DNA of 64,000 nt, taken from Candidatus Micrarchaeota archaeon. GTDB taxonomy: Archaea; Micrarchaeota; Micrarchaeia; Norongarragalinales; Norongarragalinaceae. The position numbers and the translations under genes were made by a program. The DNA is taken from assembly GCA_016207165.1 (NCBI GenBank), contig JACQQD010000008.1, forward strand, positions 1-64,000, in the 5' to 3' direction. Positions 23,517 to 45,595 of this stretch are shown one piece after another. The notes below the pieces were generated by a model. The model was not told the DNA's origin, did no database searches, and saw nothing but the letters and a program-made list of their open reading frames with translations. Numbering within the stretch: position 1 is the first letter of the stretch; every line of letters starts with the position of its first letter.

Positions 23517-23612
23517 ATGGGCCTGGAGGGATTTAGGAACCCGGACCGCGGGAACCCAGGTTCCCCCAGTCCTTGGTAACCCCGACCCCTCCTGTTTTCA
23601 TGTGCGAATTGT
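23517..23612 (-). repeat. tRNA-3'-associated hairpin element 4 plus duplicated tRNA-Ile 3' end
   Basis: ATGGGCCTGGAGGGATTT at 23613-23630 and 23517-23534; minus strand GGGGTCGGGGTTACCAAGGACTGGGG...CCCGCGGTCCGGGTTC nearly identical to element 1. Confidence 0.9.
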
Positions 23613-40655: not shown

Positions 40656-41711
40656 ATGGATGAGGGTCGTCTGCAACGCATCAAGGACGCTTTGGAAGAG
40701 GCGCCGGACGAGTCGGACGTGGCTTCGACGCCGGACGTGTCGGGGTTGGCGGCCCGCTTCCGCGAAGAGTCCGGTGCACCCACCGCCCCGCAAAAGCCTT
40801 TGCTTAACTTTGACCGCGTGGCTTTCCCCAAGAAAGGCGTGTTGTCGTTCTTCGGCGGAATCTACCAGCGTTTCGGCCGCTTTTTTCGGGGTCTTTCCGA
40901 ATTCTTTTCCCGCCTGCCCATTTACTCGTCGCTGAAAGAAAACTTGGCGTGCGCGGGCATGCGCATGGAGCCGGAGAATTTTCTCGTGATTTCCGTGACG
41001 GGCGCGTTCTCGTTTGGCGCCTTGGTGTTTGCCGCCGTGGCCCTTTTGGGCGTGTTTCTGCGCGACGTGCTTTTGGGCTTGGCAGCCCCCTTTCTTGGCC
41101 TGGCGGCGTTTATCGGCGTGCTGTTGATCGCGCTGTCGTACCCTTCCATGCAGGCCAACCAGCGCGCCACGCACGTGGACCGCGTGTTGCCGTTTGCCTT
41201 GCGTCAGCTGTCCACCCAAGTCAAAGCCGGCGTGTCCTTTCACCGCGCCATGCAATCCATTGCCGCGTCCGACTACGGGTTGCTCAGCGAGGAGTTCGCC
41301 AAAGTGGCCGCGGATGTCAACCGCGGCGACACCATGGAGAATGCGTTGCTGAAAATGTCGCGTCGGACCAAGTCCCGGGGCCTGCGCAGGACCGTCACGC
41401 AACTGCTTCGATCGTTTAAAAGCGGGGGTAACCTGTCGCAGATCATTTCCGACATCGCCGACGACGTCTCCTTCGAGGTGCGCATGAGCATCCGCGACTT
41501 CACCGAGAAGCTCAACTTCATCAACGTCATCTACATCATGGTCGGCGTCGTGGCGCCGGTGACTCTGGCCATTCTGTCGGCGATCCTCCAGATTCCCTTG
41601 TTCGCCGGCAGCATCCCGCCGTTCTTGGTGTACTTTGCCTTCGTGGGCATTTTGGGCGTCATGGTCGCGATTTTGTACGCGACCAAGCGCATGGAGCCGT
41701 CGGTATGGTAA
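40656..41711 (+). CDS. type IV pilus platform protein (TadB/C, T2SS-F)
   Basis: LPFALRQL, YGLLSEEF; several TM segments. Confidence 0.93.
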   Translation: MDEGRLQRIKDALEEAPDESDVASTPDVSGLAARFREESGAPTAPQKPLLNFDRVAFPKKGVLSFFGGIYQRFGRFFRGLSEFFSRLPIYSSLKENLACAGMRMEPENFLVISVTGAFSFGALVFAAVALLGVFLRDVLLGLAAPFLGLAAFIGVLLIALSYPSMQANQRATHVDRVLPFALRQLSTQVKAGVSFHRAMQSIAASDYGLLSEEFAKVAADVNRGDTMENALLKMSRRTKSRGLRRTVTQLLRSFKSGGNLSQIISDIADDVSFEVRMSIRDFTEKLNFINVIYIMVGVVAPVTLAILSAILQIPLFAGSIPPFLVYFAFVGILGVMVAILYATKRMEPSVW

Positions 41712-42619
41712 CTCCGTCGGAAAACCTCAAAGCCCAGTACGGCAAGCTCAAGCAGTATTATGCGGTGGCCGGTTTTCGCATGCCGTTTGAGCGCTTCGTG
41801 GCCCTTTTTTTCCTGATTTCGCTCTCCGTTTTCGTGGTTCTTTTGTTGCTCCGATTGAGCCTGGTCGTATCCGTGGTCGCGTTTTTGACGTTCATGAGTT
41901 TTGCCGTCTCCATTCCGTTGACCATCCGCAACAACCGCATCGACGCCATCGAAGCCAACCTGCCGGATGCACTCAAGCACATGGCTTTGGTGCTCAAGTC
42001 CGGGGGCACCACTGAGGCCGCGTTGCAGGAAGTCGCGCAAGCCGAGTACGGGCCCGTGAGCGACGACCTCAAAACGTCGCTGGTGCAGTTGCAGGAGGGC
42101 AAATCTTTTGAGGAAGTCTTGGAGGAGGCGGCCAAAAAATCCGGTTCGCTTCTCTTCCAGCGAACGGTCCGAATCGTTTTGGACGCCAAGCGCGCCGGCG
42201 GGGGTTTGGCTGACGTCATGTACAGCATCGCCGAAGACGCCCGCGACCTGCTTCACATCAAGCGGGAACGACGCAGCCGCACCACCATGCACGTGTTGTT
42301 CTTGTTTGTTTCTGGCGTCATATTGGCCCCCTTTATTTTCGGTTTTTCCGTGTCCATCGTCCACTACATCAATACGGGTATTTCGTCCGCGCTTCCCAAC
42401 TCGAAAGCGTCGGGTCTCTGCGATTTGAACAGCGTCTTGACGCTGTTCTTGATGGCCCAGACGCTCATTGCCGCCCTGGCTATCGGCTTGATTCGCGAAG
42501 GGCGGTTCACGAAGTATCTCCTGTACGCGCCGGTCATGGTTTTGGCCGCCCTTATTATATTCGAGGCCGGTAAGTTTGTAAGCGCCCTCATCGTGGGCGG
42601 CGCCGTGATTGCATGCTGA
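41705..42619 (+). CDS. type IV pilus platform protein (TadC, T2SS-F)
   Basis: NLPDALKHMA, EYGPVS, GGGLAD. Confidence 0.93.
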   Translation: MVTPSENLKAQYGKLKQYYAVAGFRMPFERFVALFFLISLSVFVVLLLLRLSLVVSVVAFLTFMSFAVSIPLTIRNNRIDAIEANLPDALKHMALVLKSGGTTEAALQEVAQAEYGPVSDDLKTSLVQLQEGKSFEEVLEEAAKKSGSLLFQRTVRIVLDAKRAGGGLADVMYSIAEDARDLLHIKRERRSRTTMHVLFLFVSGVILAPFIFGFSVSIVHYINTGISSALPNSKASGLCDLNSVLTLFLMAQTLIAALAIGLIREGRFTKYLLYAPVMVLAALIIFEAGKFVSALIVGGAVIAC

Positions 42620-42741
42620 AAAAAGCCTTCCGTTCAATCCGCGGACAAACGGCGATTGAATACGTCATGATGATTAGTGCCACCGTCATGTTCATTTCAC
42701 TCGTCGCTTTTTTCATCAAGACTCGAGTGATTGCGCCGTGA
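42613..42741 (+). CDS. minimal pilin-like protein (42 aa)
   Basis: Class III signal RG|QTAIEY plus hydrophobic helix; below the ORF-track cutoff. Confidence 0.75.
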   Translation: MLKKAFRSIRGQTAIEYVMMISATVMFISLVAFFIKTRVIAP

Positions 42742-42974
42742 GTTCACCGCTTCGCTCCCAGACGTCCATTGAGTACGTCATGATTTTGGGCGGCGTTTTG
42801 CTGATCGTGTCGTTGTTTGCGTATTTTCTCCTCAACACGGTCTACGCGCCGCAGACGGCCGACTTGGAGAATAAATCCAAGGAGTACAAAGACCTCAAAG
42901 GGCAACTCAACGACCAATTGGGCGACTTGGACGGTTCTGAGCAACCCGGCCCGTCGCCGTCGCCGGCTGGATGA
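42738..42974 (+). CDS. pilin-like protein
   Basis: RS|QTSIEY class III signal. Confidence 0.85.
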   Translation: MSSPLRSQTSIEYVMILGGVLLIVSLFAYFLLNTVYAPQTADLENKSKEYKDLKGQLNDQLGDLDGSEQPGPSPSPAG

Positions 42975-43037
42975 CAAAGGTTTTTAAACCCCGTTCCGTT
43001 AGGCTTTCAATTGAATCTCACAAGGGGGTTTTTCAGG

Positions 43038-43367
43038 ATGAAGCGGGGTCAAGGAACCTTTGAGTACGTGTTGCTTTTGGGCGGCGTTTTGTTGATCGTG
43101 GTTTTGGCTATCGTTGTTTTGCAGCAGACGGCGCAACAGGGCTTCCAGGGCGCGGGCCAGCAACAGTGTACGGCGCGCTTGTTGACGGACATTTCCTGTC
43201 GCAACGCGCAAGGCAACTTTAACAGTTGTGGCGTCGTGACGGCCTCCACGTATCAGGGTTGCCAATTCCAGGCAGGCACGTTTACCACGGCCGCGCCGAC
43301 GGGTTGCACCAACACCATTGACGCCGCCACGCAGCGGTACTGCGGCCGCGCGCCGATTGGTCCGTAA
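43038..43367 (+). CDS. pilin (candidate major pilin A)
   Basis: RG|QGTFEY; six-Cys head; TTTTTAAA box upstream. Confidence 0.88.
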   Translation: MKRGQGTFEYVLLLGGVLLIVVLAIVVLQQTAQQGFQGAGQQQCTARLLTDISCRNAQGNFNSCGVVTASTYQGCQFQAGTFTTAAPTGCTNTIDAATQRYCGRAPIGP

Positions 43368-43435: not shown

Positions 43436-43470
43436 TAAAGGCTTAAATTTTGTGGTTGTTTGGCTGGTTC

Positions 43471-43806
43471 ATGCGTTTGCGGCGGGGTCAAGGAACCTTT
43501 GAGTACGTGTTGCTTTTGGGCGGCGTTTTGTTGATCGTGGTTTTGGCTATCGTTGTTTTGCAGCAGACGGCTCAAGAAAGTTTTCGGGACGCCGGCTCCA
43601 AGCAGTGCGCGGCGCGCTTGCTCACGGATTTAGAGTGCCACGATGCCGACGGTTCTTGGAATGCGTGCGAGGACGTGGATGCATCGCGGTATGCGGGGTG
43701 CGTGTTTGGGTCGGAGACGTTTACCGCCGTGAGTCCGAGGGCGGGTTGCGAGGCGTTGGATGACCCCTTGACGGAGCGGTACTGCGGCAAGCCCCCGGTG
43801 TCGTAA
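43471..43806 (+). CDS. pilin (paralog B)
   Basis: RG|QGTFEY; 90 bp identical to pilin A. Confidence 0.88.
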   Translation: MRLRRGQGTFEYVLLLGGVLLIVVLAIVVLQQTAQESFRDAGSKQCAARLLTDLECHDADGSWNACEDVDASRYAGCVFGSETFTAVSPRAGCEALDDPLTERYCGKPPVS

Positions 43807-43852
43807 GGGCTTTTGGTAAATGCTTTTTAACGAGGGTCACGTCGTGTCTTTC

Positions 43853-44029
43853 ATGCGGAATAAAGTTCGGGCCCAAGCCGCCATTGAATACATTTTACTG
43901 GTTTCGTTTGGCTTGTTCGTCGTCATCGTCGGCTTCACGTTGGCTTTTTACGTGAAGAGCTTCACGGATTCCGCGTTGGCCTTGGTCGCGGAGAACCGGG
44001 ATGCCATGCTGGGCTTTTTGTTGCGTTGA
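43853..44029 (+). CDS. short pilin-like protein
   Basis: RA|QAAIEY class III signal. Confidence 0.85.
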   Translation: MRNKVRAQAAIEYILLVSFGLFVVIVGFTLAFYVKSFTDSALALVAENRDAMLGFLLR

Positions 44030-44141
44030 TTTGATTCGCGTTAGCCGGGGGTTCGGGGGAACCTGGGACTATAGGGGGCGGAGCCCCCTGTGGTCCGGGC
44101 GTGAGAACCGGGATGCCATGCTGGGCTTTTTGCTTCGGTAG
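44030..44141 (+). repeat. hairpin element 5 plus duplicated pilin 3' end
   Basis: 30-bp repeat 43991-44020 / 44103-44132; shares TTCGCG, TAGCCGGGGGT, GGGGAACCTGGG, GGGGGCGGAGCCCCC and GGTCCGGG with the tRNA-linked elements. Confidence 0.88.
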
Positions 44142-44181
44142 ACGGAAATCCTTTTCTGTCCGTGTATCCTTTTTTCTCTGC

Positions 44182-44697
44182 ATGAAAGCGTTGCGGCGCG
44201 AGTTTGAGGATTTGCATGGGTGGAGGCTCGTTGAAGCGGATCGGGTTTTCCGGTCCAGAAAGCCTCTTGTTCCAGGTCAGCCGTTGGACGTGAGCTTTAA
44301 TTCAGGCATTCGGTTGTATGCGCCTATACTTCGATTTCAGGTTCCTTTGGATGCCGTCCTGAGGCGGAAGCGAGCCGAGGCGTTGCGCGACCGATGGAAT
44401 CTGATTCAACGGCCTTCGCTGGACTCCGCAGACTCGCGGGCCAGAATTCGGTACTACCTGGATACGCATCGCTTTCAACGGGTCCGCGATTTGTTTAACG
44501 ATTCGCGATTGCATCGGGACCTCCGTGCGGAAGTGGCGGCTCCACTGCGCACGTTCTTCGGTGGGTTATTGGATTCCGGACGGTTTGACGGGGCGCGGTT
44601 TCAGCCTTACTACGTACTTCGGAAACTCGATGACGCGTCGGGAAAACCCGTTTTGGAGTTGCTTGTTTCCTTTGCGCGGATGACGCCGCAAGGGTGA
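44182..44697 (+). CDS. hypothetical protein (Arg-rich ORFan)
   Basis: ORF interrupting the pilus locus directly after element 5. Confidence 0.55.
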   Translation: MKALRREFEDLHGWRLVEADRVFRSRKPLVPGQPLDVSFNSGIRLYAPILRFQVPLDAVLRRKRAEALRDRWNLIQRPSLDSADSRARIRYYLDTHRFQRVRDLFNDSRLHRDLRAEVAAPLRTFFGGLLDSGRFDGARFQPYYVLRKLDDASGKPVLELLVSFARMTPQG

Positions 44698-44750: not shown

Positions 44751-45161
44751 GTGTTGGCGGAAATCGTTTTCTTGCAGTACGCGTTGGGCGCGGCGGCCTG
44801 GGATGTTGCGTTGGGTAAAGTGCCGAATTTCTGGAATGGGTTGTGGGTGGCGGCCGGGTTTTCGTTGGCGGGTTTGTCGTTTCCCGTTTTGGCGGCGGGC
44901 GGGTTTGTCTTGGGCTTGTGGCGGTTGGGCGTGTGGGGTGCCGGTGACGCCAAGTTTTTTGTCGGAATGGCGTTGTTTTGCTCGGCGTGGCTTTGGCCGT
45001 GGGCTTGGTTGGCCGTGTTTCTGGCTTCCGCGGTCTTGTTGGCCGGGTGGTTGGTGTTTAATAGGCAGAATTCGAAAGGATTGCGTCCGTCCTTCGTCCC
45101 GTTTCTGGTGGCGGGGTTTGTCGTGGTGTGGGCGTTGGCGGGTTTGGGCGTGTTGATGTGA
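44751..45161 (+). CDS. prepilin peptidase (A24 family)
   Basis: WD...VPN and GAGDAK motifs; FVPFL; start uncertain (44694 possible). Confidence 0.85.
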   Translation: MLAEIVFLQYALGAAAWDVALGKVPNFWNGLWVAAGFSLAGLSFPVLAAGGFVLGLWRLGVWGAGDAKFFVGMALFCSAWLWPWAWLAVFLASAVLLAGWLVFNRQNSKGLRPSFVPFLVAGFVVVWALAGLGVLM

Positions 45162-45595
45162 GTCGTGGACAATTTAGCATTGATTTTTTCCTGGTTTTGT
45201 CCATTGTCGTGGCCTTCAGCGTGCTGTTGTACAATGTGGCGTTGGGCGAAATCGGCAAGACGAAGCTCTTGGATTCCGCGGTGTTGGGCAAGCACGCATT
45301 GGATGAGTTGGCCTCCGGCGTGGACACGGCCGCCTTTTCGGGCAACCAGAGCCGCTTGCGCAAGGAATTGTTCGTTCCCGAGGACGTCAATTGCCTGTAT
45401 TTTAACTCCACCGAGAACGCGTTTTACTGTTTTGTGACGTCCTCGTTTTTGGAGGGGAGGCCCAACCGGTTGGTCAGCCGGTCTTTGTTGTCGTCCACGC
45501 CGTTGGACGTGCAATGCGGGCTGGCACCGGGCTGGCATGCCGCGTCGTTTTTCAACAACGGTTCGCACGTGGTGGTTTCATGCAGCGGCGTCTGA
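45158..45595 (+). CDS. pilin-like protein
   Basis: RG|QFSIDF class III signal. Confidence 0.82.
   Translation: MSRGQFSIDFFLVLSIVVAFSVLLYNVALGEIGKTKLLDSAVLGKHALDELASGVDTAAFSGNQSRLRKELFVPEDVNCLYFNSTENAFYCFVTSSFLEGRPNRLVSRSLLSSTPLDVQCGLAPGWHAASFFNNGSHVVVSCSGV

Follow-up and report, generated by a model that had tools for sequence, protein, structure and literature searches.

In Allomyces atp6 and in Glomus atp6, atp9, cox2 and nad3, mobile endonuclease open reading frames (mORFs) bring a foreign C-terminus into mitochondrial genes; the differences between imported and native end are mainly synonymous there, and it is the native end that agrees with close relatives (PMC3630166). We describe here a related arrangement in a stretch of 64,000 nt from Candidatus Micrarchaeota archaeon (contig JACQQD010000008.1, C8:1-64000; hereafter the window), whose source assembly (GCA_016207165.1, G000) comprises 1.27 Mb in 12 contigs with 56% G+C and is 90% complete. 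At the 3′ end of a pilin-like gene in the window, a 73-nt hairpin element separates two copies of the gene end, and the element is one more member of a recurrent, apparently unpublished family. The mORFs are its closest analogue in architecture. As with the mORFs, the gene body is followed by an imported terminus, the insert and the displaced native terminus, and the gene remains functional; this order was found at the pilin gene and at a second site, C10:5601. In contrast to those mORFs, the insert here is a hairpin of 55-140 nt without an open reading frame (ORF), tRNA genes and gene 5′ ends are also targets, dozens of targets are used in each genome, the odd copy can be to either side of the insert, and tandem arrays occur.

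Islands and proviruses that integrate into tRNA genes, and e14 at icd, use attachment sites that carry the 3′ end of the target gene. The present elements share with them the direct repeat of a gene end that flanks the insert, the preference for tRNA 3′ halves starting from the T-loop, and restoration of the gene by element-borne sequence. They differ in that no integrase or other gene is carried, that they are about 100 times smaller, that the boundaries and polarity of the repeats vary, and that one hairpin family is distributed over more than 20 unrelated targets. Among the features of tyrosine-integrase systems, the target repeat at both ends is present, and an adjacent integrase and a fixed crossover side are absent.

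Insertion with a long and variable target duplication was reportedly described by Nobusato in 2000. The inserts of this kind are kilobase-sized restriction-modification genes in bacteria, which are flanked by near-identical repeats and for which amplification via the repeats was proposed (Furuta 2010, PMC2853133). They resemble the present elements in having a variable duplication of more than 30 nt, no mobility gene and frequent overlap with a gene 3′ end; the present loci also show an empty allele in a relative that aligns once. The conserved hairpin insert and repeats with lineage-level synonymous divergence distinguish our elements from them.

[quoted passage not shown] The present elements are short, gene-less, structured, multi-copy and non-autonomous, as are MITEs, repetitive extragenic palindromes (REPs) and bacterial interspersed mosaic elements (BIMEs). 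Unlike MITEs, however, they have no terminal inverted repeats, since the left module TTTGATTCGCG with its G-rich box is not an inverted copy of the right end and the hairpin is internal; their target duplication is variable (11-111 nt), and they are positioned at gene termini and not merely in extragenic DNA. Enzymes of other known systems were searched for in the 90%-complete source genome. RAYT (Y1 HUH transposase, PF01797), which would be expected for REP or REPIN elements, was not found, nor were TnpA (Y1) and TnpB of elements derived from insertion sequences IS200/IS605 (palindrome-associated transposable elements, PATE) and of TnpB-guided elements, from which the present duplications are a further difference. 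The DEDD recombinase of IS110/bridge-RNA systems (PF01548), Cas1 of casposons (PF01867) and the reverse transcriptase of retroelements (PF00078) were likewise not found, and the duplication is variable, not the 14-15 nt of casposons.

Integron gene cassettes are known by attC hairpins, the integrase IntI, attI and the R-box GTTRRRY. The present elements are similar in combining a short coding piece with an imperfect, strand-specific hairpin and in their ability to form tandem arrays, but their coding pieces are gene ends homologous to the neighboring gene, not whole genes. An IntI-type platform, attI and R-box were not identified in searches that included none specific to IntI, and the repeat starts showed no common motif by eye. 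Our full-text literature searches on DPANN archaea and Micrarchaeota turned up no account of elements of this kind; supplementary MITE catalogues (e.g. of PMC11602168) could list them unnoticed.

The duplicated end of the pilin-like gene

The gene, its two ends and the element are arranged as follows.

43820-44029, + strand: target gene, a 69-aa pilin-like ORF with the motif QAAIEYILLV (ORF list)
43991-44020, + strand: repeat copy 1, exact 30-nt head, codons ENRDAMLGFL (sequence match)
44021-44029, + strand: tail of copy 1, TTG CGT TGA (Leu-Arg-stop), the functional gene end (sequence and comparison with G001, a genome of the same genus)
44030-44102, + strand: hairpin element, 73 nt (fold and covariance model R1)
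44103-44141, + strand: repeat copy 2, 30-nt head and tail CTT CGG TAG, joined to the native downstream flank

The sequence GAGAACCGGGATGCCATGCTGGGCTTTTTG is found exactly twice in the window, at 43991-44020 and 44103-44132, both on the + strand, and the 30-nt repeat gave no match in 100 dinucleotide-preserving shuffles. After this repeat, copy 1 continues as TTGCGTTGA and copy 2 as CTTCGGTAG, and both encode the peptide ENRDAMLGFLLR-stop in the frame of the gene. Over the last 12 codons, the copies differ at five nucleotides in three codons, and all of these differences are synonymous when stop is counted for stop. A preliminary description of this DNA had noticed that the two copies diverge and yet both end in Leu-Arg-stop, which is confirmed here, and its claim that the duplication is not simple slippage was borne out.

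Since the genome is a metagenome assembly of 12 contigs, two strain haplotypes could have been joined in tandem by the assembler, a case that the preliminary description had itself raised. The locus was compared with contigs from four runs of a single groundwater metagenome study; the source sample may be among these runs. A 635-nt contig of one run (X4) spans 43731-44365 with zero differences and so covers the whole tandem arrangement independently, and both junctions of the element, with copy 1 and with copy 2, are present in contigs of the other three runs. The same architecture is also repeated at dozens of sites in four genomes. The chance that the arrangement is an assembly artefact is therefore negligible. 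No joints of an empty site or of a circle were present among the contigs of the four runs; contigs drop rare variants and do not address polymorphism.

The pilin site of G001 is empty, and its gene ends with TTG CTC AGA TAG gcggaaagaa. Counted by eye over 19 positions, this end with its flank shares 13 with copy 2 plus the adjoining flank and 5 with copy 1 plus the flank next to it. The resemblance of the empty end to copy 2 indicates that copy 2 is native, and that the 9-nt tail of copy 1, TTG CGT TGA, arrived with the hairpin. The preliminary description had taken the second copy as a spare end from another allele or genome. One end indeed has a separate history under coding selection, but the polarity is the reverse of that proposed. 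In G009, which belongs to another genus, the orthologous pilin gene holds a hairpin of a different subtype no more than 3 nt from this position, and the locus has the order copy-hairpin-copy-hairpin-copy. Copies one and two of this array are identical; in the third, 10 of 14 codons are different, eight of them synonymously. The pilin loci of five further genera showed by eye no second copy or hairpin in the 130 nt after the stop, G004 being uncertain, and no larger island was seen at this site in the relatives' pilin loci examined.

The 73-nt element consists of the left module TTTGATTCGCG (44030-44040), a G-rich box CGGGGGTTCGGGGG (44046-44059), a 14-bp hairpin GGACTATAGGGGGC-GGA-GCCCCCTGTGGTCC (44066-44096) with two U-G pairs, and the linker GGGCGT. 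It contains no ORF. The + strand was folded into a three-way structure of -42.5 kcal/mol (z -3.85), which was equaled by none of 200 shuffles, and the - strand into a structure of -27.5 kcal/mol. The covariance model R1 matched the element at 44045-44105 with 55.6 bits. At least four G-runs (G5, G5, G3, G5) are present on the sense strand at 44046-44077 and also in the family consensus, and a G-quadruplex could compete with the hairpin. A 46-aa ORF (44001-44141) starts in copy 1 in another frame, stays open across the element and, once in copy 2, terminates in the pilin frame (…ENRDAMLGFLLR-stop); it is probably fortuitous.

The target ORF itself gave no match in a Pfam scan. It is the last in a row of small class-III-signal genes, of which its neighbors 43011-43367 and 43450-43806 matched Class_IIIsignal above the cut-off and 42738-42974 below it, and the row is preceded by a T2SSF (FlaJ/TadC-type) gene at 41705-42619 (Pfam). 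The motif QAAIEYILLV is kept in the orthologues of relatives. It is from this motif and neighborhood that we infer the label pilin. In five other genera, a prepilin-peptidase-like membrane gene lies directly 3′ of the pilin gene. A 172-aa ORF of no known family (44179-44697) separates the two in the source genome, and in G001 a homologue of ORF 45128-45595 lies immediately 3′ of the pilin gene.

Hairpin elements between copies of tRNA and gene termini

Iterated nhmmer searches found 26 copies of the element in the source genome and R1 found 24; a short-word BLAST search recovered the same element. In the examined loci of G000, G001, G002, G009 and G039, R1 identified 97 copies, and at E ≤ 0.01 it had matches in 29 of the 68 genomes of the order that were examined. 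The three genomes of this genus, including G000, contain 24, 31 and 25 copies, G009 contains 19, G020 contains 7, and four or fewer were counted elsewhere, where low counts are not equivalent to absence because R1 is tuned to this genus. The elements are G-rich, ORF-less and 55-140 nt in length. Their shared parts are a left module that is optional (TTTGATTCGCG...AAGTC), a G-rich box that reads GGGGGTCGAGGC or GGGGGTTCGGGG, and a hairpin, which is long and has a GGGGG/CCCCC top and a lower stem that varies with compensation. Among the 97 copies, whose pairing alignment was fitted to R1, 98.1% of 872 pair cells were standard pairs, whereas shuffling gave 81.9% and sliding the partners no more than 61.4%, and changes on both sides of a pair were found in 146 cells against 50.5 expected. 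In an independent MAFFT/alifold analysis of 23 copies, compensatory change was detected at five of nine pairs. Wobble pairs were U-G in 36 and G-U in 19 of the 97 copies, indicating that the hairpin structure exists on one strand only. In the window, Rfam at gathering score detected rRNA, tRNA and a group I intron only, and the hairpin family had no match.

Every well-resolved copy is flanked by two copies of a tRNA or coding-sequence terminus of 11-111 nt. In the source genome, eight sites are tRNA 3′ ends in sense orientation, with repeats starting in the T-arm, and four abut tRNA 3′ ends in antisense. Seven further sites are 3′ ends of coding sequences, four are 5′ ends of coding sequences on the opposite strand, and three were left unresolved. 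The family thus reaches protein-coding targets, as the preliminary description had proposed, in 11 of about 26 copies. In the 11 pairs linked to coding sequences, 35 codons differ synonymously and two by replacement. The frames of these pairs, on which the statistic rests, were checked by eye. When the same pairs were read in the wrong frames, the ratios of synonymous to replacement codons were 2:31 and 2:33, and so few replacements were not obtained in any of 20,000 random-mutation simulations. This is clearest at C10:5601, where the 81-nt repeat shows 21 nucleotide differences; they affect 17 codons and are synonymous throughout, among them Ser AGC versus TCT and Arg AGG versus CGG. Judged from their codons, the repeat copies behave as orthologous gene ends under purifying selection and not as exact recodings. 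Of the repeat pairs of at least 20 nt, 11 of 53 are identical. At several sites, such as the pilin gene, C3:43987 and C9:97912, the differences cluster beside the element.

The origin of the copies at other sites was examined by comparison with relatives. For C10:5601, the gene end was compared against 18 relatives. The proximal copy of the source genome has an AGC-type end, as in all 16 genomes of other genera that were compared, and the distal copy has TCT, like the TCN of its own genus (the gene-proximal copy of G001 and the empty site of G002). At the 20 differing positions in the range compared, the empty G002 agrees with the distal copy at 11 and with the proximal copy at four. In G001, this site is occupied and carries the same two end types in the opposite order. 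The part of the repeat far from the left end of the element shows 24/27 and 23/27 identity within genomes and 18-21/27 between them, from which it appears that the element-distal part was homogenized within each genome. At C11:80500, a 5′ target, the site is empty in both G001 and G002, whose codons 7-10 (AAA CCC ACC/ACT CGC) match the gene-proximal copy of the source genome and not the distal one (AAA CCG ACT AGA); upstream synteny also differs. The end of the TFB gene is present in three copies in G001, all synonymous variants of one peptide, and the site is empty in G011. Taken from these sequence comparisons, one repeat copy can be foreign on phylogenetic evidence, and the side carrying the odd copy varies between sites and genomes (pilin, C10:5601, C11:80500).

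An array was also observed at a 5′ end in G009 (L079, C13:440-1310), where three to four copies of a gene start (MKAFYIGSAT…) have a family hairpin between each.

The window contains five family copies, located at tRNA-Ala in the rRNA spacer, tRNA-Pro, two tRNA-Arg genes and the pilin gene. The four at tRNA genes are listed below.

846-957, + strand: family member following tRNA-Ala of the rRNA spacer, flanked by tRNA 3′-end copies 821-845 and 958-983
6293-6405, + strand: family member after tRNA-Pro(GGG), between 21-nt tRNA 3′-end copies 6272-6292 and 6406-6426
8647-8782, + strand: family member after the intron-bearing tRNA-Arg, between 19-nt copies 8628-8646 and 8783-8801
23535-23606, - strand: family member after the minus-strand tRNA-Arg(TCG), between tRNA 3′-end copies 23630-23607 and 23534-23511

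A second small palindromic repeat (CCTTTTCTTTTGGGAAAGAAAAG-like) at 848-887 and 6175-6214 adjoins the family copies at tRNA-Ala and tRNA-Pro; it is also present at the TFB locus of G001 (L124, ~2120-2165), where it separates copies two and three of the gene end. Composite sites were also found, in which two inverted members of different subtype with a T-run between them are flanked by a tRNA 3′ end and its displaced copy (C6:20897-21142 in the source genome, L054 and L062 in G001, L093 and L110 in G002). The group I intron match (3158-3431, 53.4 bits, gathering score 50) lies within the archaeal large-subunit (23S) rRNA gene at 1228-4623, a gene that exceeds the length of the model by about 400 nt.

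Routes by which the cassettes may spread

We explain these observations by ORF-less terminus cassettes that spread by homology-driven insertion and exchange, an explanation to which we give a probability of roughly 0.5; the pilin duplication would be the footprint of one such cassette. A cassette consists of a hairpin element between two homologous copies of a gene terminus, with the gene staying intact. At the pilin gene, the distal copy (44103-44141) is the original, and the proximal 9-nt tail and the hairpin arrived together. DNA that carries a hairpin and a terminus copy, whether as an occupied allele, as a tandem array or as a small circle from another strain or species, would recombine with the chromosomal terminus, either by a Campbell-type single crossover or by allelic replacement with one crossover inside the repeat, and the position of the crossover would be variable. 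Later gene conversion, between the copies or with empty alleles of the population, would leave the middle of the repeat identical and its element-side edge diverged. Its conservation, strand specificity and G-rich box mark the hairpin as the putative active site of this process, through a structure prone to recombination or as the site of a recombinase; the enzyme may be that of host homologous recombination or a tyrosine recombinase of the genome acting in trans. Since the copies would once have been functional gene ends in different lineages, their differences would be synonymous. Homology-driven recombination appears the simplest explanation of the foreign-type copy, the variable side and boundaries, the identical middles with diverged edges, the arrays, and the occurrence of both empty and occupied alleles, and we favor it over classical fixed-site integration. 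The preliminary description had compared the locus with an attP that restores its target gene, and the arrangement does work as an insert that brings a replacement for the displaced gene end. The site-specific recombination that it preferred fits less well than homology-driven recombination: no recombinase gene lies beside the copies, and the length and start of the repeats (11-111 nt) as well as the side of the odd copy vary.

Classical integration would make the element a miniature attP-bearing remnant that is mobilized by a tyrosine recombinase in trans. As in tRNA-integrating islands, the crossover would have a fixed place at the repeat's left edge, and the element would supply the proximal copy. 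T-loop attachment sites for integration are said to have been described by Williams in 2002, and our tRNA-target repeats begin in the T-loop; moreover, the right linker of the element resembles a degenerate T-stem (GGGTTC), and the polarity at the pilin gene fits. The source genome has three tyrosine recombinase genes, all located elsewhere than the pilin element. Two of them are paralogues (C3:309-1529 and C5:32408-33694) that are 60% identical and carry a C-terminal zinc ribbon. An 11.7-kb integrated element (C1:153013-164696) with a 15-nt direct repeat and a tyrosine integrase beside the tRNA is also present at tRNA-Met. However, no family copy was found beside an integrase gene when R1 was applied at every position of eight integrase loci (best E 2.9). 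Nor does the presence of the integrase family clearly track the element load among the 68 genomes: G020 has seven copies and no integrase match, and G036 and G040 have the integrase and no R1 match, a comparison confounded by kinship and by the genus-tuned R1. Even among targets of one kind, the repeats vary in start and length; the odd copy may be to the left or right of the element, and one enzyme would need to accept more than 20 unrelated targets. We thus consider integrase-mediated integration rather unlikely. The zinc-ribbon family has a patchy, multi-copy distribution (30 of the 68 genomes), suggesting that it is itself likely mobile. Just outside the far repeat of the 11.7-kb element, two family copies lie head to head.

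A duplication derived from the target itself is also to be considered. Staggered breaks or template switching would produce a long and variable target duplication, the left end of the element would give the last codons and the stop, and exchange with diverged alleles would follow. The identical repeat pairs are in line with it, as is the finding that many element copies open with an in-frame stop (TTTGA-GGGGG, ATAG-GAGGGG), and the bacterial insertion with long target duplication is likewise without a known enzyme (PMC2853133). Furthermore, the pilin-type hairpin has only two coding-sequence 3′ targets in the source genome, the pilin gene and a translin-like gene on C9, and both end in LLR-stop, an ending found in only two of 5,916 long ORFs. 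This coincidence, which was noticed post hoc, is a hint of a short tail that moves together with the hairpin and is tolerated only where the end of the gene matches. But duplication alone cannot yield the 21 synonymous differences over 81 nt at C10:5601, nor the recoded patch of four codons in the middle of the repeat at C11:80500 or the diverged third copies in arrays, and we regard this origin as unlikely. In a homing-like process, a nuclease acting in trans would break the target terminus, and repair would copy the hairpin together with a cleavage-resistant, recoded terminus from an occupied allele. The order of body, foreign C-terminus, mobile ORF and native C-terminus in the mitochondrial DNA of Glomus and Allomyces (PMC3630166) and the clustering of differences beside the element are consistent with such a process. 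The element has no ORF, however, and more than 20 targets would need as many specificities or a guide; none of the enzymes sought in the source genome, as stated above (TnpB, Y1 transposase, IS110 recombinase, Cas1 and reverse transcriptase), was detected, and the native sequence persists 100 nt away. Homing is thus improbable. Finally, both copies could be in use if the element were removed or bypassed at the DNA or RNA level like an intron or a switchable insert. Spare copies almost never contain frameshifts or stops, and the ORF at 44001-44141 enters copy 2 in the pilin frame. In contrast, the fold of copy 1, element and copy 2 showed no pairing like a bulge-helix-bulge (BHB) motif (z -1.87, 10 of 200 shuffles as good; no dedicated BHB search was made), direct repeats cannot pair together, and the spare copies of 5′ targets lie outside any plausible gene transcript. 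Use of both copies is therefore very improbable.

Two further ideas were dropped. An RNA-guide system, with the hairpin as scaffold and copy 2 as guide, was abandoned because no guided nuclease was found, and a template-switch origin, in which microhomology with the C9 copy would have produced the junctions at the pilin gene, because, by eye, the return junction did not fit.

Several results weigh against homology-driven spread of cassettes. No intermediate, neither a circle nor an empty allele in the same population, was seen among contigs, which drop rare variants. An uncurated automatic count at 24 sites in relatives gave 61 synonymous and 36 replacement codons, although at least seven of its rows were faulty by eye (wrong frame or strand, tRNA, or over-extended alignment), and a true 111-nt pair in G009 has about eight conservative replacements, so that purely synonymous difference is no rule of the family. 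The bias of the differences toward the edge of the element is modest (69, 74 and 108 of 251 by thirds of the repeat, 53 pairs), and the left exact run was longer in 27 of 41 informative pairs (p 0.06). At C10:5601, the crosswise pairing of the ends of the source genome and G001 is weak (42+42 versus 40+35 of 54 positions), with the class of Ser codon clear, and the native end of G002 is equidistant from both G001 copies (63/81 each). The hairpins at C10:5601-5661 and C11:80500-80561, which belong to unrelated targets, are identical over 56 nt and their flanking repeats are among the most diverged, suggesting recent spread or conversion between element copies. The model also leaves aside the first origin of cassettes directed at a new target.

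More broadly, and tentatively, the family may represent an undescribed class of archaeal mobile elements, in which a strand-specific, G-rich hairpin would start or receive recombination and a copy of the target's own terminus would serve as the address. Such elements could enter essential genes and tRNAs of streamlined DPANN archaea harmlessly, cross species, stack into arrays and swap gene ends, and could be the way in which archaeal tRNA genes gain their inserts. For genome annotation, duplicated gene termini and short spurious ORFs are to be expected at cassette sites. If the explanation is true, the family would offer a compact system in which to test how gene ends are replaced, and likewise for insertion with long target duplication, the mechanism of which is open in bacteria too, and would provide a marker of gene flow among uncultured lineages. 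It would also mean that tiny symbiotic archaea carry abundant gene-less mobile DNA which, by delivering a further terminus copy or recombining with one, colonizes the ends of their essential genes and tRNAs.

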